From positions 8,088-72,087 of the forward strand of contig JAUYFM010000049.1 of assembly GCA_030690945.1 (NCBI GenBank): a stretch of DNA of 64,000 bases. The letters are read 5' to 3'. This document shows positions 20,028 through 29,792 of this stretch, one piece after another. The position numbers were made by a program, and so were the translations under genes. Within the stretch, counting starts at the first letter, position 1. Each line of letters opens with the position of its first letter. The notes under the pieces are model-generated. The model was not told the origin of the DNA. It ran no database searches and saw nothing but the letters and a program-made list of their open reading frames with translations. Origin of the DNA: Smithellaceae bacterium (GTDB lineage: Bacteria > Desulfobacterota > Syntrophia > Syntrophales > Smithellaceae).

Positions 20028-20522
20028 ATGACCATACCTATCGTATCCATTGTCGGTAAATCCAATACCGGGAAAACAACGCTCCTGGAAAAACTTATCG
20101 CCGAGTTGGTCGGCAGGGGCTGGCGTGTTGCTACGATCAAGCATAACAAGCATGGTTTTAACATTGACCACGAAGGGAAAGACAGTTACCGCCACAAGAA
20201 AGCGGGCGCGCATATCACAGTTGTTTCATCACCGCATCAACTGGCACTCATCTCGGACGTGGACCATGACTATTCCTTCGAGGAAATCCGTGATAAATTT
20301 ATTTCCGGCGTCGATATTATTTTAACCGAAGGCTTCAAGGTAAATGACTATCCGAAAATTGAAGTGTTCCGCGCGGAACTCAAACAGGAATTGATCAGCG
20401 CCAAAGATGGTAACCTGTTGGCTGTGGCCTCGGATGAGCAACTGGACGTGGATGTCCCCTGCCTTGATATCAATGAACCAAAGGCAATCGCTGATTTTAT
20501 CGAAAATAAATTCTTAAAGTAA
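20028..20522 (+). CDS. mobB: Molybdopterin-guanine dinucleotide biosynthesis protein B
   Basis: VGKSNTGKTT, IKH, DHEGKDSYRH, LTEGFK; start moved to ATG 20028. Confidence 0.93.
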   Translation: MTIPIVSIVGKSNTGKTTLLEKLIAELVGRGWRVATIKHNKHGFNIDHEGKDSYRHKKAGAHITVVSSPHQLALISDVDHDYSFEEIRDKFISGVDIILTEGFKVNDYPKIEVFRAELKQELISAKDGNLLAVASDEQLDVDVPCLDINEPKAIADFIENKFLK

Positions 20523-20545
20523 AATTTTGTGCTTTGAATACATTG

Positions 20546-20989
20546 CTACTTTACTCTCGTCCAGTAATGACTTTCGCAAAGAAACATTAAACAGGCCGTG
20601 ACTTGTAACTTGTCCGGGGTAATCTGGACCAAAGAGCATTTGTATTCGGAGCCCTCTTCAACTTCATATATTCTTCCGTCGACATACCGGCCGGCTTCTT
20701 TTTTAAGGCCCCAGAGAATCAACATCCCCAACAGCGGTTTATCTTTTCTGTCTTTTTTGCATGTTGTACACAACGCATTCTCGGGGACTGTGGTCAGTTT
20801 CACAATTTTGCCGGAGTAAATCCCGTCCTTTTCAAATATTTCGACATTTGATCTTTCCTTGCCCTTGTCCTTGCCTTTGAGAATCGGCAAAGACCATACG
20901 CCGATAATGGATTTATCGGCCGCATAACTCGTAAAAGAAAACGTTATAACGAAAATGAACGTCGTCAAAAAAAGTATCGTTTTTTTCAT
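20546..20989 (-). CDS. DUF2147 family exported protein
   Basis: Signal peptide, IIGVW, CTTC...DKPLLGMLIL, GRIY...YKC, WTRVK. Confidence 0.8.
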   Translation of the reverse strand: MKKTILFLTTFIFVITFSFTSYAADKSIIGVWSLPILKGKDKGKERSNVEIFEKDGIYSGKIVKLTTVPENALCTTCKKDRKDKPLLGMLILWGLKKEAGRYVDGRIYEVEEGSEYKCSLVQITPDKLQVTACLMFLCESHYWTRVK

Positions 20990-21059
20990 ATTTGCCCTCC
21001 TGCTGTAATCCTGTGAATAACATCAACCTCCTGCAAGCATATGAGTAATATCCTTTGAC

Positions 21060-21440
21060 CTATTTACCTATTTCCTTAAATTTGATCGGATCGGTCGCGT
21101 AAAGGACGGCACGCTCGACACCCTCCTCGCGGAAATGATGGGTTTTTAGATAATCGGGATTATTGGCCATCGCAAGGAACGCTTTGCGTGACGGGTATTG
21201 CACCAGCATGAGCAAATCCCACGTTTCTTCGCCATTGAGCAACTCGTCGGGTTTCCCCAGATACAAGACTTTTCCCCCAACGCCTTCGACAAATCCTCCC
21301 GCTTCTCTGGTGTAGCGCGCGTAAGAGGCTTGACCTTCCACACCTCTGAACTTCAGCAGATTAAGCATGACCACCGGCCCATCATGGGGATTCTTGGCCA
21401 ATTTGCGGAATTCTTCGGGGTTGGATTTAATTTCAGTCAT
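21060..21440 (-). CDS. DUF1330 family protein
   Basis: GPVVMLNLLKFR, WD..LVQYPSRKAFLAM. Confidence 0.85.
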   Translation of the reverse strand: MTEIKSNPEEFRKLAKNPHDGPVVMLNLLKFRGVEGQASYARYTREAGGFVEGVGGKVLYLGKPDELLNGEETWDLLMLVQYPSRKAFLAMANNPDYLKTHHFREEGVERAVLYATDPIKFKEIGK

Positions 21441-21479
21441 TTTAGTTTCTCCTTCTTTGAAAATATTTCATGTGGGTGA

Positions 21480-22697
21480 TCAATCATATCTTTTCAGTTC
21501 AAAAAGTTTTTTATTTTGCGTGGAAACGATGTGGTAGAAACGGTCCTGCGGGATATAAATATAAGGAACATCAACGTCGCGCCGGTAAAGAAAATGCGAC
21601 AGGATCAAACGATTAACAGCCTGATGGCCGACAATCATAATGTTCTCCGCACGCCGGTTGAGAAAGAATGATTTTTTAATTCCCGCCTCGATTCTCGATT
21701 TCATCGCCGCGTAACTTTCACCCCCGGGATACACATAAGCGTATTTATGGGCTTCGCGCTCACGGAAGACCTGCGGCACCTTTTTTTCAATCTCGGCATA
21801 GGTCATGCCCTCGCAGACGCCGGCATTGATTTCATCAAACTCTTTGAGCGCGATAATCCGACAATCGCTTTGTTTTTCTGCGATAGCTTCCGCCGTTCTT
21901 TTAGTTCTCAGCTTGCTGCTGGTAAAGATGTAGGATATTTTCTTTTTGATAAAAAATTGCCCCAAGGCTTCGGCCTGTTCCATTCCTTTTGCAGTAAGAT
22001 TGGAATCGCCGCCAATGCGGTCCTCCACGTTATACTCCGTTTGGGCATGCCGGATCAGAAAAAGATTTTTAACTTCGTCTGTGACCAGATAATCGCGCAG
22101 GCGTGCGTAAAGGGGAATCGAATCGGTGTGCTTTTCTTCGATAATCTTGTTTTGCAGTGAATCCAGGCGTACATAATTTCTTTCCACTTTCAAGGAAACA
22201 TAGATCATTTTATAGTAATTAATTCTTTTCAAAAACTCCGCTTCCGCCGTCCTGCTGTCCAGTTGCGCGAACTCCGGCAGTTTCGTTTTTTCCAGAATGC
22301 TCAGAGGCACAATATCATCATCATCATTCACGCACTCGATAAAGAACAGGGGATGGTCATCAAGATATTCCTCAATCATCTCCCGGCGACAACGGCCTGC
22401 GTTGGTCGCGTCCAGAATAGCCACCTGTCCGGAATTGCGCAGATAGGCCTTTGCTCTTTCCATATTCATGCAGGCGAATTTTTTTCTCAGCGCCACGGCC
22501 GCCGGATTATTCGGAGAATAAAACTCGGCACAGGATGTTTCCTTAAGCGGCCTGTAGATCCGGCGCAGATTGCCGTTATTGAATATCCGGGTATGAATGT
22601 TATCTTTGTGGAAAGCCTCCCTCAAGCGCACGGCCAGCGTGGATTTGCCACGGGCAGGCAGCCCCATCAGGACAATATAGAGTTTGTCATCGCTCAT
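21480..22697 (-). CDS. Bifunctional 6-phosphofructo-2-kinase/fructose-2,6-bisphosphatase (eukaryote-type)
   Basis: Kinase: MGLPARGKS, FNNGNLRR, LDATN. Phosphatase: RHAQTEYN..RIGGDS, EINAGVCEGMTY, YPGGESY, GHQAVNR. Confidence 0.9.
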   Translation of the reverse strand: MSDDKLYIVLMGLPARGKSTLAVRLREAFHKDNIHTRIFNNGNLRRIYRPLKETSCAEFYSPNNPAAVALRKKFACMNMERAKAYLRNSGQVAILDATNAGRCRREMIEEYLDDHPLFFIECVNDDDDIVPLSILEKTKLPEFAQLDSRTAEAEFLKRINYYKMIYVSLKVERNYVRLDSLQNKIIEEKHTDSIPLYARLRDYLVTDEVKNLFLIRHAQTEYNVEDRIGGDSNLTAKGMEQAEALGQFFIKKKISYIFTSSKLRTKRTAEAIAEKQSDCRIIALKEFDEINAGVCEGMTYAEIEKKVPQVFREREAHKYAYVYPGGESYAAMKSRIEAGIKKSFFLNRRAENIMIVGHQAVNRLILSHFLYRRDVDVPYIYIPQDRFYHIVSTQNKKLFELKRYD

Positions 22698-22730
22698 AAA
22701 CTTTCGACCACACCTTTGCCGTCCAAACTC

Positions 22731-22760
22731 CGTAGAGACATTGCATGCAACGTCTCTACG
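22731..22760. repeat. GTAG-type REP
   Basis: CGTAGAGACATTGCATGCAACGTCTCTACG, near-perfect palindrome. Confidence 0.8.
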
Positions 22761-23330
22761 TTATCTGACCATTTTACAACCGATGTCAAAAGCCCGCTCC
22801 AGAAGCTCCTGGTTTCCGGTCGCGGGTTTCTCTGCGCTGTCTGTATGAATAATTTTCCCCACAACATCCATGCCCAGACCGCTGCCAGTCATACCGGTCA
22901 GATACATAATGGATTTCTGATATTGTACGGGATCGGGCGCGCCCTGAGAAATCGCCAGCGCGTAAGTTTTGCCCGGAGGCACCATGGATTTGTAGCCGCC
23001 CTGCGGTAAATTGGCATAAAGAGAATAAATGCGATCCACAAACAGTTTCATCTGCCCGGAAATACGGTACATGTAAATGGGGCAACCGAGGACCATTCCC
23101 GTACAGGTTTTGATCGCCTCAAGATAAGGACTAAGATCATCTTTCGCGCTGCAAAACCCTGGATTTTTCCGGCAACCCAGACAGCCCAGGCAGCCCTTGA
23201 AGTTAATGTCGTGAAGCCGCACCTCGGTGGTCTGGGCACCGCGCGATCGCCCGCCCTCCAGCATGGAGGCAACGATGGCGGATGTGTTTCCCTGAGAACG
23301 TGGACTTCCATTGAACGCTAAAATTTGCAT
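22761..23330 (-). CDS. Iron-sulfur flavoprotein (NADPH-dependent FMN reductase family)
   Basis: NGSPRSQGNT, CLGCLGC...C, PIY..SGQMKLFVDR. Confidence 0.9.
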   Translation of the reverse strand: MQILAFNGSPRSQGNTSAIVASMLEGGRSRGAQTTEVRLHDINFKGCLGCLGCRKNPGFCSAKDDLSPYLEAIKTCTGMVLGCPIYMYRISGQMKLFVDRIYSLYANLPQGGYKSMVPPGKTYALAISQGAPDPVQYQKSIMYLTGMTGSGLGMDVVGKIIHTDSAEKPATGNQELLERAFDIGCKMVR

Positions 23331-23374
23331 AAAAAACTCCTTTAGGGGTTTAGGCTATTGGCCTATCGTCTTTT

Positions 23375-23399
23375 ACCTTCAGCCTTCGGTCTTCAGCCT
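23375..23399. repeat. Inverted-repeat arm downstream of pyk
   Basis: ACCTTCAGCCTTCGGTCTTCAGCCT matches the reverse complement of 24849-24873 at 24 of 25 positions. Confidence 0.85.
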
Positions 23400-23404
23400 T
23401 TAGC

Positions 23405-24811
23405 CTATTTCAACCTTTTTACTCTCAACATATTCGTCGTTCCCGACACCCAGATCGGATGGCCGACAGTGATGACAATCAAATCTCCCGGCTTTGCTTC
23501 ACCGGACTCCAAGGCAGCCTGAGAGGCTTTTTCAATCATATCATCCGTATCATGCGGATCGTTGACCAGACGGGGAAGACAACCCCAGCTTAAAGCAAGA
23601 CGCCGCACTGTCTTTTCATTGGGTGATAAGGCAACAATCGTCTGGCTGGGGCGAAAGCGGGATATGTAGCGGGCTGTCCTGCCGGACTGGGTATGGGCAA
23701 CAATAGCCTTTGCCTCCAGATGACTGGCCAGAACACAGGAGGCGTGAGCAACCGATTCGGAAATATCCTTCTTGGGGGTCATAGCCAGAAATTCTTCAAA
23801 CGGAAAACCTCTCTCAGCAGCGGAGACCAGACGGCTCATATACAAAACAGCCTCCACCGGATAGTCGCCGGATGCTGTTTCTTCGGAGAGCATCACGGCA
23901 TCGGTGCCGTCGAGCACGGCGTTAGCGACGTCAGCGGCTTCGGCACGGGTAGGCCGCGGCGAGGAAACCATCGAACGCAGCATCTGTGTCGCGGTGATGA
24001 CCGGCTTACCTGCGGCGTTGGCTTTGGCAATCAACTTCTTTTGAATCAGCGGAACATCTTCCAGCGGTATTTCCACACCCAGATCACCGCGCGCAACCAT
24101 GATGCCGTCCGAAATACCCATGATGGCGTCAATGTTATCAACGGCTTCATGTTTTTCTATTTTGGCGATCACCGGGGTGTCTTTGCCCTTTGCGGCAATA
24201 ATGTCTTTGACCATTTTGATGTCGTCCGCAGTTTTAACGAAAGATAAGGCGATAAAATCAACCCCATTTTCCAGACCGAACAGCAGATCGCTGCGGTCTT
24301 TTTCAGTGAGGGATGCTGTGCGGATTGTACCAGTCGGCAGGTTAATTCCCTTATGCGACGTCAGGAGGCCACCGGTGACTACTTTGCAGACAATATCGAT
24401 ATCATTCGCCTCTTCAACGACTAGCTCCATTAAGCCGTCGGCCAAAAGCAGCCTGTCTCCGGTTTTCACTTCCCTCGGCAAATCTTTATACGTGAGCGAC
24501 ACTGCCTCTATGCTGCCTTCGATCGGGCGGCTGGTTAAAATAAATTGATGGCCCGGCGTCAGTACAATGCCGGGAGCAGGAATCGTGCCGATTCGAATTT
24601 TCGGTCCGGCCAGATCCAGCAGAATCGCAACTGGCCGGTCAAGTTTCCCGGACAGCGCACGAATCGTTTTGATCTTTTGCAGATGGCCTTCGTGCGAGCC
24701 ATGCGAGAAATTCAGCCGCGCCACATTCATGCCGTTCAAGATCAAGGCTTGAAGAACGTCTTCCTTTTCGGAAGCCGGTCCGATGGTGCAGACAATTTTT
24801 GTTTTTTTCAT
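23405..24811 (-). CDS. pyk: Pyruvate kinase
   Basis: TKIVCTIGPAS, ARLNFSHG, IAKIEK, MVARGDLGVE, TATQML, DAVMLSEETA. Confidence 0.99.
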   Translation of the reverse strand: MKKTKIVCTIGPASEKEDVLQALILNGMNVARLNFSHGSHEGHLQKIKTIRALSGKLDRPVAILLDLAGPKIRIGTIPAPGIVLTPGHQFILTSRPIEGSIEAVSLTYKDLPREVKTGDRLLLADGLMELVVEEANDIDIVCKVVTGGLLTSHKGINLPTGTIRTASLTEKDRSDLLFGLENGVDFIALSFVKTADDIKMVKDIIAAKGKDTPVIAKIEKHEAVDNIDAIMGISDGIMVARGDLGVEIPLEDVPLIQKKLIAKANAAGKPVITATQMLRSMVSSPRPTRAEAADVANAVLDGTDAVMLSEETASGDYPVEAVLYMSRLVSAAERGFPFEEFLAMTPKKDISESVAHASCVLASHLEAKAIVAHTQSGRTARYISRFRPSQTIVALSPNEKTVRRLALSWGCLPRLVNDPHDTDDMIEKASQAALESGEAKPGDLIVITVGHPIWVSGTTNMLRVKRLK

Positions 24812-24848
24812 AGACTCCTTTTGCGCTTCGCGCAGGCTATAGGTTCAT

Positions 24849-24873
24849 AGGCTGTAGACCGAAGGCTGAAGGT
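24849..24873. repeat. Inverted-repeat arm upstream of pyk
   Basis: AGGCTGTAGACCGAAGGCTGAAGGT; partner of 23375-23399. Confidence 0.85.
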
Positions 24874-25041
24874 TGTTTTGTAAGGGCGCTTTGCGCCCCG
24901 CTCTTTTTTACAAGAGATCGGTCTGTTCTTCTTTTCATAGCAAATAAATTGGTTTACTTCAACATCACAAATTCCTTTGCAGCCATCATGTCTTAGGCCA
25001 CTCCCTTGTCGAATACGCCTTCATCGCCAGGGAGAAATGGA

Positions 25042-25070
25042 TTGACAACCCATAGGCTTTTGTTTAATCT
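25042..25070 (+). promoter_or_regulatory. Putative sigma70 promoter of gap-pgk-tpiA
   Basis: TTGACA, 17 bp spacer, TAATCT; 28 bp before the gap ATG. Confidence 0.55.
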
Positions 25071-25098
25071 TTTTTACCTAATGATTGAGGAGGAGAAT

Positions 25099-26097
25099 AT
25101 GGCTGTAAAGATCGCAATTAACGGATTCGGAAGAATCGGCCGACTGGTATTTCGCGCCGGTTATAAAAGCAAGGATGTGGAATTCGTGGCAGTCAATGAT
25201 CTGGCCGACGCTAAAACACTGGCTCACCTGCTCAAATATGATTCTATTCACGGCACACTCAATGCTGAAGTAAAATCCACACCCAATGCCATCATTGTTG
25301 ACGGCAAGGAAATGAAGGCTTTTTCCGCAAAAGACCCGGAAACACTGCCCTGGAAAGACCTGGGGGTAGATGTTGTTCTGGAGAGCACAGGAAGATTCAC
25401 CGATAAAGACGGAGCCGAAAAACATCTGAAAGCCGGCGCCAGAAAAGTGGTGATCTCCGCACCCGCCAAAGGGGCGGACGTGACGGTTGTTTTCGGCGTC
25501 AATCCGCAGGACTATGACAAATCGAAGCATCACATTATCTCCATGGGCTCCTGCACCACCAACTGCCTGGCGCCGATCGTCAGAATTCTGCATGAGGAAT
25601 TCGGCCTGGAATACGGTCTGATGACGACGATTCATTCCTACACCAACGATCAGGTGGTTCTCGACGAGCCGCACAAGGATTTGCGCCGGGCGCGCGCCTC
25701 CGCGCTTTCCATGATTCCCACAACCACCGGCGCCGCCCGCGCCATTGCGGAAGTCATTCCCGAAATGAAGGGCAAGCTTGACGGCCTGGCGATCCGCGTG
25801 CCCACACCCAATGTTTCACTGGTCGATTTTGTGGCGACACTGTCGCGCGAAACGAGCAAACAGGAAGTCAATGAAAAACTCAAAGAGTATTCGCAAAAAG
25901 CGATGAAGGGTATTTTGTTTTGCTCTGAAGAAGAGCTGGTGTCGCGCGACTTTAACGGCAATCCGCATTCATCGATTGTGGATTTGCCCAATACGACCGT
26001 CATCGGCGGCAAAATGGTGAAAATACTTTCATGGTATGACAACGAATGGGGCTTTTCCAATCGCATGCTGGAACTCCTGTCGTTCATCATGAAATAA
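25099..26097 (+). CDS. gap: Glyceraldehyde-3-phosphate dehydrogenase (type I)
   Basis: INGFGRIGR, SCTTNCLAP, WYDNEWG; GAGGAGGAG RBS before ATG 25099. Confidence 0.99.
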   Translation: MAVKIAINGFGRIGRLVFRAGYKSKDVEFVAVNDLADAKTLAHLLKYDSIHGTLNAEVKSTPNAIIVDGKEMKAFSAKDPETLPWKDLGVDVVLESTGRFTDKDGAEKHLKAGARKVVISAPAKGADVTVVFGVNPQDYDKSKHHIISMGSCTTNCLAPIVRILHEEFGLEYGLMTTIHSYTNDQVVLDEPHKDLRRARASALSMIPTTTGAARAIAEVIPEMKGKLDGLAIRVPTPNVSLVDFVATLSRETSKQEVNEKLKEYSQKAMKGILFCSEEELVSRDFNGNPHSSIVDLPNTTVIGGKMVKILSWYDNEWGFSNRMLELLSFIMK

Positions 26098-26148
26098 AGA
26101 TTTATTTAGTTTTTTATGGCAACGCAAGGATACCAATTATTACAATCT

Positions 26149-26235
26149 TTGTCATTTCGAGGAGCGCAGCAACGAGAAATCCTAAAACCCCGCGATATTC
26201 GGGACAAAGATTTCTCCCGGCGATCGAAATGACAA
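26149..26235. repeat. GTCATTTCGA-type REP element
   Basis: TTGTCATTTCGA...TCGAAATGACAA ends with inner GAGAAATC/GATTTCTC; related copy at about 49557-49632. Confidence 0.8.
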
Positions 26236-26262
26236 TATGAATAAAAACAGAGAGGTAGAATC

Positions 26263-27438
26263 ATGAAGTACTTAGATCAGATTGATGTCAGCGGAAAGAA
26301 GGTATTGGTGCGTGTGGATTTTAACGTGCCGATGGACAAGTCAGGCAACGTCACAGACGATACACGTGTCAAAGCGAGTTTAGCCACCATCAATTATATC
26401 CGGGAAAAGGGCGCCAGAGTGATTGTTACGTCCCATCTCGGGCGGCCCAAGGGAAAGAGAGTTGAGGAATTTTCTTTGAAACCGGTTGCTCCGATTCTTG
26501 CCTCCCTGCTTAAAAAAGACGTTCTATTCGTTGATGATTGCATCGGCGAAAAAGCTCTGCAGGCTGTAGCCAACATGAAAGCAGGCGACGTGATTCTGCT
26601 GGAAAACCTGCGCTACTATCCGGGTGAAGACAAAAACGATGACGCGTTTGCCCAGGAACTCGCCAAGCTTTGCGACGTTTATATCAACGACGCGTTTGCC
26701 GTGTCGCACCGCGCGGCGGCTTCCAATACCGCCATCACCAAGTTTGTGCCCGTGTGCGCCGCAGGGTTCCTGCTGAAAAATGAAATAGAGTATTTTAATA
26801 AGGCCATGGGCAATCCTGCGCGGCCGCTCGTCGCCATTATCGGCGGAGCCAAAGTGTCCGACAAGATCAAGGTTTTGGAAAATGTCATCGATAAAGTAGA
26901 CCGCCTTATCGTGGGCGGCGGCATGGCCTTTACCTTCCTGAAAGCCCAGGGTCTGAATGTCGGTAAATCCCTATGTGAAACGGAAATGCTGGACCTGGCC
27001 CGTAAAATCATGGAGAAAGCGAAACAAAAGAACGTTCAGTTTTTATTGCCGGTCGATGTGGTGATCGCCAAGGCGACCGTGGCGGACGCTGAAACAAAAG
27101 TTGTCGCCGTCAAAGACATTCCCGATGAATGGATGGGTCTGGATATAGGCCCCGCAACCATCGCGGCGTTTTCCGACGCCGTAAAAACGGCCAAGACGAT
27201 TGTCTGGAATGGGCCACTGGGCATGTTTGAACTCGCCCCTTTTTCTTCAGGAACATTTAAACTGGTGGATGCAGTCGTGGCTTCCGGCGCGCTGACGATT
27301 GTCGGCGGCGGCGATACCGATACCGCTATTCACAAAACCGGTAAGAGCGATAAAATATCTTACATCTCAACCGGCGGCGGCGCGTTTCTGGAACTTTTGG
27401 AAGGCAAGACCCTGCCGGCAGTGGCCGCTCTCGGATAA
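26263..27438 (+). CDS. pgk: Phosphoglycerate kinase
   Basis: RVDFNVP, SHLGRP, LLENLR, GGAKVSDK, STGGGA. Confidence 0.99.
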   Translation: MKYLDQIDVSGKKVLVRVDFNVPMDKSGNVTDDTRVKASLATINYIREKGARVIVTSHLGRPKGKRVEEFSLKPVAPILASLLKKDVLFVDDCIGEKALQAVANMKAGDVILLENLRYYPGEDKNDDAFAQELAKLCDVYINDAFAVSHRAAASNTAITKFVPVCAAGFLLKNEIEYFNKAMGNPARPLVAIIGGAKVSDKIKVLENVIDKVDRLIVGGGMAFTFLKAQGLNVGKSLCETEMLDLARKIMEKAKQKNVQFLLPVDVVIAKATVADAETKVVAVKDIPDEWMGLDIGPATIAAFSDAVKTAKTIVWNGPLGMFELAPFSSGTFKLVDAVVASGALTIVGGGDTDTAIHKTGKSDKISYISTGGGAFLELLEGKTLPAVAALG

Positions 27439-27443
27439 ACCGC

Positions 27444-27496
27444 CTCGCGAACTCGCTGCGGCGAATTAACGCTTGTCCCGCAACAGCGGGATTAAA
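27444..27496. repeat. Dispersed ~53-bp repeat, copy 1
   Basis: GAATTAACGCTTGTCCCGCAACAGCGGGATTAAA is nearly identical to sequence in 47450-47503. Confidence 0.75.
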
Positions 27497-27509
27497 ACGG
27501 AGGAAACAA

Positions 27510-28256
27510 ATGAGAAAGTGGATTGTCGCCGGCAACTGGAAAATGCACAACACCATCAGTGAATCCGTGGCGCTGGCTTACGCGATTAAAGAAGGAACAA
27601 CCGGTTTGAAAAACGGCGAGGTCGTTGTGGCTCCGCCGTTTACCGCTTTGCATAGCGTCGGCGAGGCCATCAAAGGTTCCGCCGTGGCACTTGCCGCGCA
27701 AAATATGTATTATGAAGATAAAGGCGCGTTCACCGGTGAAGTTTCTCCGTCAATGCTCACAGATGCCGGCTGTAAATATGTTATTATCGGGCATTCCGAG
27801 CGTCGCAAATATTTTAATGAGAGCGATGAAAATGTAAATTTAAAAGTAATGAAAGCGTTGGCAACCGGCTTGAAGCCGATTGTTTGTGTCGGCGAAACGG
27901 ATGGCGAAAGAAACAAAGGCGTTACGCAGAGTGTCGTGAACCGCCAAGTCCGCAAAGCGCTGGCCGGTGTTAATAAGATTGATCACATTGTTATCGCCTA
28001 CGAACCGGTCTGGGCGATTGGAACGGGTAAGGTGGCCACCTCCGCTCAGGCCGAGGACGTTCACGATTTCATTCGCCGTCTTCTCGTTGAAATATATGGC
28101 TGTATGGCTGATGACGTTCGTATTCTCTATGGCGGCAGTGTGACGAAAGATAATATCGGCGAGTTGATCGCGATGGAGGATATCGACGGCGCACTGGTCG
28201 GCGGCGCTTCGTTAAAGCCGGACGACTTTTTAGGCATCATCAATAAAATGCCGTAA
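27510..28256 (+). CDS. tpiA: Triosephosphate isomerase
   Basis: AGNWKM, GHSERR, AYEPVWAIGTG, LVGGASL. Confidence 0.99.
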   Translation: MRKWIVAGNWKMHNTISESVALAYAIKEGTTGLKNGEVVVAPPFTALHSVGEAIKGSAVALAAQNMYYEDKGAFTGEVSPSMLTDAGCKYVIIGHSERRKYFNESDENVNLKVMKALATGLKPIVCVGETDGERNKGVTQSVVNRQVRKALAGVNKIDHIVIAYEPVWAIGTGKVATSAQAEDVHDFIRRLLVEIYGCMADDVRILYGGSVTKDNIGELIAMEDIDGALVGGASLKPDDFLGIINKMP

Positions 28257-28415: not shown

Positions 28416-28469
28416 GTTTCTTAGGAGACGACTCTCAGGCGCCTTGGCAATTTTACAATGTCATTTTTT

Positions 28470-28537
28470 GTAGGGAACGGTCTTGCCACCCGCATGGGTG
28501 GTCGCGATAACCTAAAGGTCACAAGACCGTTCCCTAC
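28470..28537. repeat. Expanded GTAG-type REP with two internal hairpins
   Basis: 16-bp IR GTAGGGAACGGTCTTG/CAAGACCGTTCCCTAC enclosing CCACCCGCATGGGTGG and TAACCTAAAGGTCA. Confidence 0.8.
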
Positions 28538-28553
28538 TCCTTTGTGGCAACCT

Positions 28554-29009
28554 ATGACCCGCATATTAATCGTTTACTATTCCCAGACCGGCCACACAGA
28601 GCAAATGGCAGAGGCCATCGCCGAAGGCGCAAAGGCCATCGAAGACGTAACAGTCATCCTGAAAAAAGCCGGCGACGCGACACTCGATGACCTTCTAGCC
28701 TGCAACGGTCTGGCTATCGGCACGCCGGAAAACTTCGGCTACATGTCCGGCATGATCAAGGATTTTTTCGACCGGACCTACGCTGGGGCGCAGGACAAAG
28801 TTTTCCGCAAACCCTATGTCGTTTTCATCAGTGCGGGCAACGACGGCTCAGGCGCGCTCAAAGCCATCGAGCGCATCGCCCTGGGATACAAATTCAAAAA
28901 CGTTTTCACCCCTGTCATTGCCAAAGGAAAAATCACCGGAGAAATCCTAGAACAATGCCGCGAGCTGGGCGGGACGCTGGCCGGCGGGTGTGCAATGGGA
29001 ATCTATTAA
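28554..29009 (+). CDS. Flavodoxin (WrbA-like)
   Basis: YYSQTGHTEQMA, GTPENFGYMSGMIKDFFDR; start moved past the REP. Confidence 0.88.
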   Translation: MTRILIVYYSQTGHTEQMAEAIAEGAKAIEDVTVILKKAGDATLDDLLACNGLAIGTPENFGYMSGMIKDFFDRTYAGAQDKVFRKPYVVFISAGNDGSGALKAIERIALGYKFKNVFTPVIAKGKITGEILEQCRELGGTLAGGCAMGIY

Positions 29010-29040
29010 AAGGCTGGCCCTATTTTCTGACCTGACCACC

Positions 29041-29073
29041 TGATGACCTGGAGGTCACACGAGGTGGCGCGAG
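29041..29073. repeat. 33-bp dispersed repeat, copy 1
   Basis: TGATGACCTGGAGGTCACACGAGGTGGCGCGAG; reverse complement at 50692-50724 with one mismatch. Confidence 0.8.
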
Positions 29074-29159
29074 GCTGTAAGTTTTTAGTAAAGCTGACGG
29101 GGTAACGAGTGGCGGAAAAACCAAAACATTTCCCATCAACTGGATATTATTGGAGCATC

Positions 29160-29792
29160 ATGAAAGAAACTAAATTGTCACCGGTAAAAACAAAATCAAA
29201 AATTAGAGAATTTGTTGAAGCAATCCTGACGGCTTTCCTGATCGCCGCCTTTATCATCTCATTTGTGGTCCAGGCGTTTAAAATACCGTCCGGCTCCATG
29301 ATTCCGACCCTGCTGGTCGGCGATCATCTTTTCGTCAACAAATTTATTTACGGCGTAAAAATCCCGTACTTCAGAATAACGATCATACCGATTACCGATC
29401 CAAAAAGAGGCGACGTCATCGTTTTTATTTACCCGCAGGACCGATCCAAAGATTTCATCAAACGCGTCATCGGCACAGCCGGCGATAAGATTGAAATGAA
29501 AAACAAAAAACTATTCATCAATGATCAGGTTTATACGGATACTTTCGGCATTTATAACGACGATGCGATTTATCCGGCCGATGCGCAGCCGCGTGATAAT
29601 TTCGGGCCGGTGACGGTTCCGCAGGGTTCTCTTTTTGTCATGGGTGATAATCGCGATCATAGTCTGGACAGCCGCTTCTGGGGATTTGTCGATTTGAAGG
29701 ACGTTCAGGGCAAGGCATTTATTATTTACTGGTCATGGGATGCAGAAGAAAAGAATGTCCGTTGGGACCGCCTGGCTAAACTGATCAAATAA
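29160..29792 (+). CDS. lepB: Signal peptidase I
   Basis: IPSGSMIPTL, DFIKRVIG, MGDNRDHSLDSRFWG. Confidence 0.97.
   Translation: MKETKLSPVKTKSKIREFVEAILTAFLIAAFIISFVVQAFKIPSGSMIPTLLVGDHLFVNKFIYGVKIPYFRITIIPITDPKRGDVIVFIYPQDRSKDFIKRVIGTAGDKIEMKNKKLFINDQVYTDTFGIYNDDAIYPADAQPRDNFGPVTVPQGSLFVMGDNRDHSLDSRFWGFVDLKDVQGKAFIIYWSWDAEEKNVRWDRLAKLIK

Follow-up and report, generated by a model that had tools for sequence, protein, structure and literature searches.

A PFK-2/FBPase-2 family gene beside glycolytic genes in a Smithellaceae bacterium, and its bacterial relatives

The region analysed here, referred to as the window, is a stretch of 64,000 nucleotides from the genome of a Smithellaceae bacterium (assembly GCA_030690945.1, contig JAUYFM010000049.1, positions 8,088 to 72,087). 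A gene on its minus strand (21480..22697) encodes a protein of 405 amino acids, P0001, with the two domains of the bifunctional enzyme 6-phosphofructo-2-kinase/fructose-2,6-bisphosphatase (PFK-2/FBPase-2, or PFKFB). Fructose 2,6-bisphosphate (Fru-2,6-P2) is taught as a eukaryotic master switch between glycolysis and gluconeogenesis. The gene stands third in a co-oriented row, in which pyk, encoding pyruvate kinase (23405..24811, minus strand; Pfam PK and PK_C, NCBIfam TIGR01064 with 562 bits), is followed after a 74-bp gap by a gene for an FMN_red/flavodoxin-like flavoprotein (22761..23330, minus strand; PF03358, 1.4e-16) and, after a further 63 bp, by the PFKFB gene. Divergent from this row on the plus strand lie gap (25099..26097, with a corrected ATG start; Pfam Gp_dh_N and Gp_dh_C), pgk (26263..27438; Pfam PGK, 6.1e-164) and tpiA (27510..28256; Pfam TIM, 1.7e-96). 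An earlier reading of the letters of this DNA (the original prediction) had described the same order and gaps, and Pfam confirmed the identities of the genes.

Both domains were recognised well above the Pfam cut-offs. The kinase domain (PF01591, 6PF2K; residues 2-173, codons 22179..22694, minus strand) scored 120.2 bits against a cut-off of 27 (E 1.1e-34), with the same result from a genome-wide scan, and fused to it on the same chain the histidine phosphatase domain (PF00300, His_Phos_1; residues 212-376, codons 21570..22064, minus strand) scored 135.2 bits against 21.7 (E 2.9e-39). All of the motifs named in the original prediction were located, with both catalytic histidines among them. 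In the kinase domain these are the Walker A motif GLPARGKS (12-19), FNNGNLRR (39-46) and DATN (96-99), accompanied by K137, R158 and Y162, and in the phosphatase domain RHAQTEYN (216-223, with R216-H217), RIGGDS (227-232), EINAGVCEGMTY (289-300, beginning with E289), YPGGESY (323-329) and HQAV (358-361, with H358). The phosphatase motif begins RHA, where the family has RHG. Residues 4-389 of P0001 aligned in a single colinear match to residues 37-422 of human PFKFB2 (5htk_A, E 1.1e-63), and the top matches among the PDB sequences were the human, bovine and rat bifunctional enzymes, with E values of 1e-58 to 1e-63 for human PFKFB2/3. The protein corresponds to the catalytic core and lacks N- or C-terminal regulatory tails, with the core beginning three residues in and the chain ending at residue 405. 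Members of the bacterial clade described below are each of ~400-410 amino acids, with both domains fused in all of those looked at.

Database names for this protein are inconsistent, including 'histidine phosphatase family protein', 'Phosphoserine phosphatase 1', '6-phosphofructokinase' and, at JGI, 'broad specificity phosphatase PhoE/predicted kinase', and several close relatives at NCBI are already annotated as '6-phosphofructo-2-kinase/fructose-2,6-bisphosphatase'. The names 'PhoE' and 'phosphoserine phosphatase' given by some sources were rejected as unfit, with models of the CobC/PspA/GpmB type all falling far under their cut-offs. The best of the NCBIfam models for stand-alone histidine phosphatases was TIGR03162 (96.6 against 162.9 bits), followed by PspA (72.6 against 350 bits) and GpmB (65.3 against 261 bits). 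Enzymes such as CobC, PspA, PhoE and GpmB do share the fold and the RHG/His mechanism of the C-terminal domain (Foldseek TM 0.73-0.84 on target length), but they are only 18-26% identical to it, have no 6PF2K fusion and lack the Arg/Lys/Tyr pocket kept in bacterial PFKFB.

The active sites were checked in an alignment of P0001 with 60 other sequences, 34 rows of which form the bacterial clade, reaching down to 45% identity to P0001. A total of 22 positions do not vary in any of the 34 bacterial rows, in the kinase domain K18, R45, R46, R71, D96, N99, R104, R105, K137, R158 and Y162, and in the phosphatase domain R216, H217, N223, R264, E289, Y300, R314, K318, Y329, H358 and R363. The roles that we take these residues to have (catalytic, ATP-binding Lys, fructose 6-phosphate [F6P] ligands and the Arg/Lys/Tyr of the 6-phosphate pocket) are presumed from the PFKFB literature. 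The kinase catalytic set of G12, K18, S19, D96, N99 and K137 is complete in P0001, and the F6P-pocket positions of the kinase (the Arg of FNxGxxRR, Arg71, Arg104/105, Arg158 and Tyr162) are also kept in 13 to 14 of 14 labelled eukaryotes. Losses at these sites were seen in lone labelled eukaryotic rows (H217T, E289K and Y162C). Such invariance is the pattern expected of an enzyme with both activities and both sugar-phosphate pockets in use. Position 98 is Thr, Ser or Ala across the bacterial rows, and the departures from the eukaryotic residue pattern are minor. These sequence comparisons strongly support the identification of P0001 as a true PFK-2/FBPase-2 with both of its active sites intact.

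An AlphaFold2 monomer model built from a 33-row alignment had a mean pLDDT of 91.9 and a pTM of 0.86. In a Foldseek search of the PDB the first 26 ranks were all PFKFB entries (E 7e-34 to 6e-31), and the bisphosphatase domain of the rat liver enzyme (1tip/1fbt) matched the model with a TM of 0.91-0.92 and an rmsd of 1.9-2.0 A.

Bacterial PFKFB is no rarity, and it is common in the phylum. Whole-genome searches of 101 Smithellaceae genomes (family assigned by hit names, the window's own genome included) found the gene in 69, at 66-96% identity, and in 47 of the 68 having at least 90% completeness and at most 5% contamination. Four of the seven genera carry it, with none found in the genomes of g4 (0/13), g5 (0/1) and g7 (0/1). 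Some orthologues lie on closed or near-closed contigs of 2.8-5.2 Mb, and the named close matches were metagenome-assembled genomes (MAGs) of Smithella, Smithellaceae and Syntrophaceae. From an even draw of 401 Desulfobacterota genomes, 55 passed the Pfam cut-off and 51 gave a strong match (E ≤4.1e-30, open reading frame [ORF] of ~400-560 amino acids), distributed across 11 family codes; the four weak matches (27.6-34.8 bits, ORFs of 192-557 amino acids) were left out of the carrier count. A pattern scan across 185,579 species, each represented by a single genome, matched at least 599 stretches, among which at least 573 relatives are encoded. The best 80 of these carried labels of Smithella/Syntrophaceae, Desulfobacteraceae, Desulfatiglandales and Desulfovibrio, and included, at 55-58% identity, four Candidatus Scalindua records and one of Brocadiaceae (L142, L151, L161, L165 and L169). 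A search of 1.84 billion cluster representatives returned 253 clusters at E ≤1e-30, and the members looked up included a Desulfovibrio sp. MAG (P0128, 45%), a Myxococcota MAG (36%) and many eukaryotes. The original prediction had placed homologues in 'a few' Deltaproteobacteria, which is an underestimate, given 11 families of the phylum and the other phyla found here. Another 405-residue member of the bacterial clade, P0130 (44% identical), carries the NCBI label 'Nanobdellota archaeon', which may reflect mis-binning or a transfer into a DPANN archaeon.

A maximum-likelihood tree (IQ-TREE, LG+C20 PMSF, short search, 404 columns, unrooted) was made from 61 rows, these being P0001, 17 of the 80 named loci, 13 of the 40 further fetched loci and 30 of the 150 listed representatives. 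The last included 14 labelled eukaryotes, namely a fish, a duck, a nematode, two insects, a crustacean, a choanoflagellate, a breviate, an ancyromonad, a fungus, a red alga, a streptophyte alga, a legume and an MMETSP protist. A branch of length 0.91 with an SH-aLRT support of 100 splits the 34-row bacterial clade from the other 27 rows, so that the comparison with eukaryotic PFKFB called for by the original prediction resulted in a separate bacterial clade. This clade holds all of the sampled Desulfobacterota families, the Desulfovibrio sp. protein P0128, the anammox sequences nested inside and two rows with no label or an odd one. Across the branch from it stand the 14 eukaryotes together with the Myxococcota protein and a marine AT-rich group; when the tree is rooted at its midpoint, these last two fall between the bacterial clade and the eukaryotes. 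No eukaryotic group encloses the bacterial clade, which is distinct, old and widespread. The anammox sequences adjoin a Desulfatiglandales-type pair inside the Desulfobacterota clade (support 89), which looks like a transfer from Desulfobacterota; the flanks of the Scalindua and Brocadiaceae loci gave no match to any of the glycolytic query genes. The only other His_Phos_1 match in the window's genome (C1) is 31% identical over 153 residues, and no paralogue-rooted tree was made because a single distant outgroup would join the longest branch whatever the truth.

Two side observations concern sequences on the eukaryotic side of this tree. The complete genome G198 (L035, G198:C51:1-3473; P0174) has a PFKFB-like ORF of 779 amino acids that outscores all others with Pfam (E 1.6e-65), lies on a short contig and groups with the streptophyte alga and the legume (SH-aLRT 100), apart from the bacterial clade; either the gene was transferred from a plant or alga, or the contig is a contaminant. 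The marine AT-rich group (the P0195 cluster, P0146, P0191, P0212, P0229 and P0249; L175) has proteins of ~400-411 amino acids on contigs of up to 64 kb. One member is labelled 'Methylobacterium sp.' in RefSeq, and a 64%-identical copy occurs on a 6-kb contig of a giant-virus bin. The host of this group matters for rooting the PFKFB family.

To describe the gene neighbourhoods, 8 kb on each side of the gene were fetched in 40 genomes (10 of the same genus, 10 from three other genera of the family and 20 of other families) and queried with the window proteins. Within the genus, the divergent gap-pgk-tpiA genes were present in nine of the 10 loci, pyk was upstream in four and the flavoprotein gene was in place in five. 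None of pyk, gap, pgk and tpiA was found within 8 kb in the 30 loci of other genera and families. Linkage to pyk is a genus-level feature, and the synteny with pyk that the original prediction had proposed to check across genomes was not borne out. The FMN_red gene is probably a passenger. Pfam scans of the 30 loci revealed no operon partner conserved phylum-wide, the two genes on each side being variable, and the partners that did recur were lineage-specific: Bax1-I and radical SAM (f40/f74), GGDEF-PAS and AHAS (f47), and a response-regulator-TPR protein (f49).

Candidate targets for Fru-2,6-P2 were sought in the window's genome, which holds two phosphofructokinase (PFK) genes of PF00365 (365 and 433 amino acids) and one class I fructose-1,6-bisphosphatase (FBPase) of PF00316 (312 amino acids), with GlpX not found in the genome search. 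The longer PFK passed the NCBIfam equivalog for ATP-dependent enzymes (634 against 400 bits) and has a GGDG motif. The shorter was assigned to the 'PFK_mixed' subfamily with 384 bits, under its cut-off of 430, and has GGED, with Asp in fourth place, followed by PKTIDGD. In the relevant passages of a 2025 review of PFK diversity (PMC12203962), ATP-dependent PFKs have an invariant Gly at this position (GGDG) and pyrophosphate (PPi)-dependent ones an Asp, and the P(G/K)TID motif by itself is indecisive for the donor. From its motif, the phosphate donor of the short PFK is probably PPi. Genes for glycogen synthase and glycogen phosphorylase stand side by side in this genome, which encodes Pyk and has genes of the PPDK/PEP-synthase type as well, and with the glycogen genes and those of the PPDK/PEP-synthase type the flux between F6P and fructose 1,6-bisphosphate (FBP) can run both ways, so that a switch would be useful.

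The search was then widened to the 80 named loci, with the FBPase and PFKs of this genome as further queries. Some of these loci repeat earlier contigs (such as L095 = L064) and were not double-counted for the genus. Outside Smithellaceae, 21 of 65 loci have a class I FBPase gene 1.2-5.4 kb upstream of PFKFB and on its strand, as do 18 of the 45 having at least 5 kb of upstream flank, with at least one contig (L094 = L127) counted twice in these denominators; the loci concerned are labelled Desulfobacteraceae, Desulfobacterales, Desulfatiglandaceae/-ales and Desulfacyla. In a Syntrophaceae MAG (L112), gap, an intact pgk and PFKFB are co-oriented with gaps of ~18 and ~97 bp. In a Desulfobacteraceae MAG (L132) a short PFK gene, its product 76% identical to that of the window's genome, begins 168 bp after PFKFB, and in a member of family f51 (L081) a PFK of 385 amino acids is encoded directly upstream of it. 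Linkage to central carbon metabolism thus recurs in several lineages, which strongly supports the part of the original prediction that tied the gene to glycolysis and gluconeogenesis; the further suggestion of a signal acting on the neighbouring Pyk is weak, and fails by the condition of a conserved pyk linkage that the prediction had itself set. In another carrier, of family f49 (G439:C27:1294-5052), the short and long PFK genes were seen to adjoin each other divergently.

Co-occurrence was examined by searching the 401-genome sample for PFKFB, class I FBPase (Pfam, E ≤1e-10) and PFKs of the 433- and 365-residue types. Class I FBPase was found in 50 of the 51 PFKFB carriers, the exception being a genome 80% complete, and in 166 of 350 non-carriers. 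A PFK of any kind was present in 50/51 carriers (the exception being G198) against 252/350 non-carriers, the short type in 38 against 135, and the long type in 33 against 138. Class I FBPase occurs in 66 of 111 family codes, and each of the 11 families with PFKFB is one of these (hypergeometric chance ~0.002, the families not being independent). Within Smithellaceae, PFKFB and the short PFK were concordant in 80 of the 101 genomes, 58 having both and 22 having neither, and many of the 21 discordant genomes are incomplete MAGs. The three genera of the family without PFKFB are also without the short PFK. For other families of the same order, five genomes of four families lack both PFKFB and the short PFK and keep the long PFK and FBPase, and one genome has the short PFK alone. 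Taken with the neighbourhoods, class I FBPase would be the best-supported target and the short PFK the second, both being better candidates than Pyk.

The upstream region was compared by aligning the 330 bases upstream of gap across 13 same-genus loci. The ORF listed for gap begins with TTG at 25006, but its Pfam domain begins only at ORF residue 34, and this, together with a ribosome-binding site and promoter just upstream of ATG 25099 that are conserved in all 13 loci, makes that ATG almost certainly the true start. The candidate promoter of gap-pgk-tpiA (25042..25070, plus strand) reads TTGACA-17 nt-TAATCT and is kept in 13/13 loci, its function being suggested by the consensus. About 100 bases upstream of it is a second block (24938..24963, minus strand; TTGAAG-17 nt-TATGAA), the core of which, TA[GAC]CA[AG]A and ACTTCAA, is also kept in 13/13 loci. 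As this block is retained whichever divergent gene comes first (pyk, FMN_red or PFKFB), it may be read as the promoter of a row that always holds PFKFB. A scan of 20300-25300 gave 11 promoter-like sites against 6.6 +/- 3.0 expected and eight terminator-like sites against 6.3 +/- 2.5, counts that say little on their own, with no terminator-like site in the two gaps between pyk, FMN_red and PFKFB. Between both divergent promoter-like elements there is a perfect 6-bp GC stem followed by a T-run (24884-24908, plus strand; GGGCGC TTT GCGCCC), and similar GC hairpins occur at the equivalent place in some, though not all, of the aligned loci. This stem may keep one divergent unit insulated from the other, or it may belong to the 5' leader of pyk.

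P0001 probably serves both to make and to break down Fru-2,6-P2. Its N-terminal P-loop domain would use ATP to phosphorylate F6P at C-2, yielding Fru-2,6-P2, and the C-terminal domain would hydrolyse this back via a phospho-His217 intermediate, with E289 and H358 assisting. Since there are no tails bearing the phosphorylation sites of the animal isozymes, the balance of kinase and phosphatase would be set by metabolite levels and by transcription from the conserved promoter-like block divergent from gap-pgk-tpiA. The Fru-2,6-P2 so produced would most probably inhibit class I FBPase and might possibly activate the short PFK with its PPi-like GGED motif, allowing the cell to toggle between glycogen-fed glycolysis and gluconeogenesis from acetyl-CoA/pyruvate without futile cycling. 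Here we infer the activities, the presence of Fru-2,6-P2 in cells, its targets and the sign of its effects, and we incline towards the chain as a whole, in which a working, tail-less PFK-2/FBPase-2 sets a level of Fru-2,6-P2 that steers the F6P/FBP node via FBPase and perhaps PFK.

In trypanosomatids it is pyruvate kinase that is activated by Fru-2,6-P2, and it could be supposed that here too the metabolite is made and that its main target is the neighbouring Pyk. The position of pyk two genes upstream in the same orientation, the row without terminator-like sites in its gaps behind a conserved promoter-like block, and the recurrence of pyk upstream in four of 10 same-genus loci would all suit this. 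However, pyk is absent within 8 kb from the other six same-genus loci and from all 30 of the remainder, and in several loci of the genus PFKFB comes directly after the conserved block with no pyk. The trypanosomatid system has PFK-2/FBPase-2 and pyruvate kinase, as does the window, but the linkage here is confined to part of one genus, and the closest solved relatives of this Pyk are bacterial (Staphylococcus, Geobacillus, Mycobacterium and E. coli), with no trypanosomatid enzyme among the 60 listed. Pyk as the main target is accordingly judged to be distinctly unlikely. It is also conceivable that the gene was recently acquired from a eukaryote, or is an assembly contaminant, and has no integrated role; the PFKFB family is best known from eukaryotes, and eukaryote-like copies can turn up in such assemblies, as with the 779-residue form of G198 that groups with plant enzymes. 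Against this, the window gene is flanked by bacterial genes on a 64-kb stretch of ordinary composition, its orthologues occur in 69/101 genomes of the family and in part on megabase-sized contigs, and the fully supported long branch that separates the whole clade from all 14 labelled eukaryotes for practical purposes excludes recent import or contamination. We regard this origin as extremely improbable.

A harder alternative to dismiss is that P0001 is a family member which is effectively monofunctional in vivo, like the yeast proteins Pfk26, Pfk27 and Fbp26, or acts on another sugar phosphate (for example as a broad phosphatase/kinase, in line with its JGI name), giving no Fru-2,6-P2 signal. 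Several observations tell against the proposed switch, among them the variable R102, and two in the protein itself would fit this alternative: Ser replaces Thr after the Walker Lys in 33 of the 34 bacterial rows, and at position 359 there are 14 rows with Gln and 20 with Arg. The inconsistent database names and the fact that the literature searched has no bacterial activity on record point the same way. The AlphaFold2 placement of the domains also differs from that in all PFKFB crystals (whole-chain TM ~0.5 and rmsd ~16 A, compared with ~2 A for the single domains), an arrangement that may be an artefact of monomer modelling or a real quaternary difference. As to the targets, the FBPase of the genome is a divergent class 1 member (358.6 bits against the 521-bit cut-off of the best model), and neither PFK type is universal among the 51 carriers, the long being missing in 18 and the short in 13. 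FBPase and PFKFB are neighbours rather than an operon, separated by one to four genes on the opposite strand, and their proximity may be synteny inherited within one clade. Class I FBPase is common in non-carriers as well and the genomes are related, so its association with PFKFB may reflect shared ancestry or lifestyle. The hint of expression is weak: contigs ~95-96% identical to parts of the gene were present in two wetland metatranscriptome runs from two studies, covering 0.12 and 0.05 of the stretch, but these contigs come from close relatives and contigs in RNA libraries are no proof of transcription. On the other hand, both active sites and both sugar-phosphate pockets are invariant in all 34 diverged rows, unlike the eukaryotic rows with a lost site, the models for cobC, PspA, GpmB and other histidine phosphatases fall far under their cut-offs, and fusion of the two domains was seen throughout the clade members looked at. 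A monofunctional enzyme or one with a different substrate is thus considered unlikely, though less so than Pyk as the main target.

Published work adds to the points on the negative side. According to the introduction of a 2022 paper (PMC9721465, citing Rider 2004), Fru-2,6-P2 has not been found in bacteria except for Desulfovibrio desulfuricans, and passages of PMC12203962 name as Fru-2,6-P2-activated the eukaryotic ATP-PFKs and, among PPi-PFKs, only those of plants, and report that the PFK of Acetivibrio thermocellus was unaffected by the 11 metabolites tested. In the full-text literature searched, which leaves out most subscription journals, no bacterial member was found to have been characterised by enzyme assay, metabolite measurement or genetics. 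Term searches gave no mention of PFK-2 in a review of the evolution of prokaryotic glycolysis (PMC12525153), none of a bacterial Fru-2,6-P2 enzyme in PMC12203962, and none of fructose, glycolysis, gluconeogenesis, pyruvate kinase, glycogen or trehalose in a 2026 comparative genomics paper on Smithellaceae (PMC13685792). The occurrence itself is not new, one Desulfovibrio case having been in print since 2004 (as cited in that 2022 introduction) and database names being in existence. The D. desulfuricans homologue, recorded there as a single exception, is a deltaproteobacterial member of the same family, which is now seen in 11 families of the phylum and beyond. The window gene may also be compared with the better-known systems below.

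The animal enzymes PFKFB1-4 (5htk, 2axn, 1bif and 1k6m) share with P0001 both domains and their order, being colinear with its residues 4-389 at ~32-35% identity and having the same catalytic and binding residues. They differ in having an N-terminal extension of ~30 residues and a C-terminal tail, both lacking in the bacterial protein, in having Thr where it has Ser after the Walker Lys, and in falling outside its clade. Animal isozymes are under hormonal control by phosphorylation of these tails, and with no tails in the bacterial protein such control has no counterpart there. The plant enzyme F2KP (~750 amino acids) has the same catalytic core behind a long N-terminal extension containing CBM20, which the bacterial protein lacks. 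In plants the PPi-PFK (PFP) is a target of Fru-2,6-P2, and the GGED of the short PFK in the window's genome has an Asp as in the GGDD of PPi-PFKs, but this bacterial enzyme (365 amino acids, 'PFK_mixed') is unlike the long alpha/beta PFP type of plants.

What is observed is an intact and strongly constrained enzyme that is common in a large phylum of anaerobes and repeatedly found near gap-pgk, PFK and class I FBPase. Its breadth, neighbourhoods and co-occurrence turn the textbook statement of 'eukaryotes only' into a clear and cheap experimental question. If the proposed role is true, an allosteric second messenger would be added to the control of bacterial central carbon metabolism, with relevance to the syntrophs, sulfate reducers and anammox bacteria used in waste treatment, and it would bear on the origin of the eukaryotic Fru-2,6-P2 system. 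A Desulfovibrio sequence is reportedly discussed in the evolutionary survey of Michels and Rigden from 2006. A bolder and, with the tree unrooted, doubtful proposal is that Fru-2,6-P2 signalling was no eukaryotic invention, and that an old, mostly vertically inherited Desulfobacterota fusion, passed to anammox Planctomycetota and controlling class I FBPase and a PPi-type PFK in anaerobes, was ancestral to the eukaryotic enzyme.

The remaining neighbours of the gene are of less evident relevance. A gene for a DUF1330 protein (21060..21440, minus strand; PF07045, 8.6e-10) begins 39 bp downstream of PFKFB, is not known to be tied to it and was found in four of the 10 same-genus loci. Farther downstream is a gene for a DUF2147 protein (20546..20989, minus strand; PF09917, 5.2e-21), which is downstream of PFKFB in nine of these loci, including those that lack pyk, the flavoprotein gene and DUF1330, with no functional tie evident. 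On the opposite side, after tpiA, the window has a flavodoxin-like gene and one for signal peptidase I (LepB) at 28458-29792, and the flavodoxin-like gene is retained downstream of tpiA in 9/10 same-genus loci.

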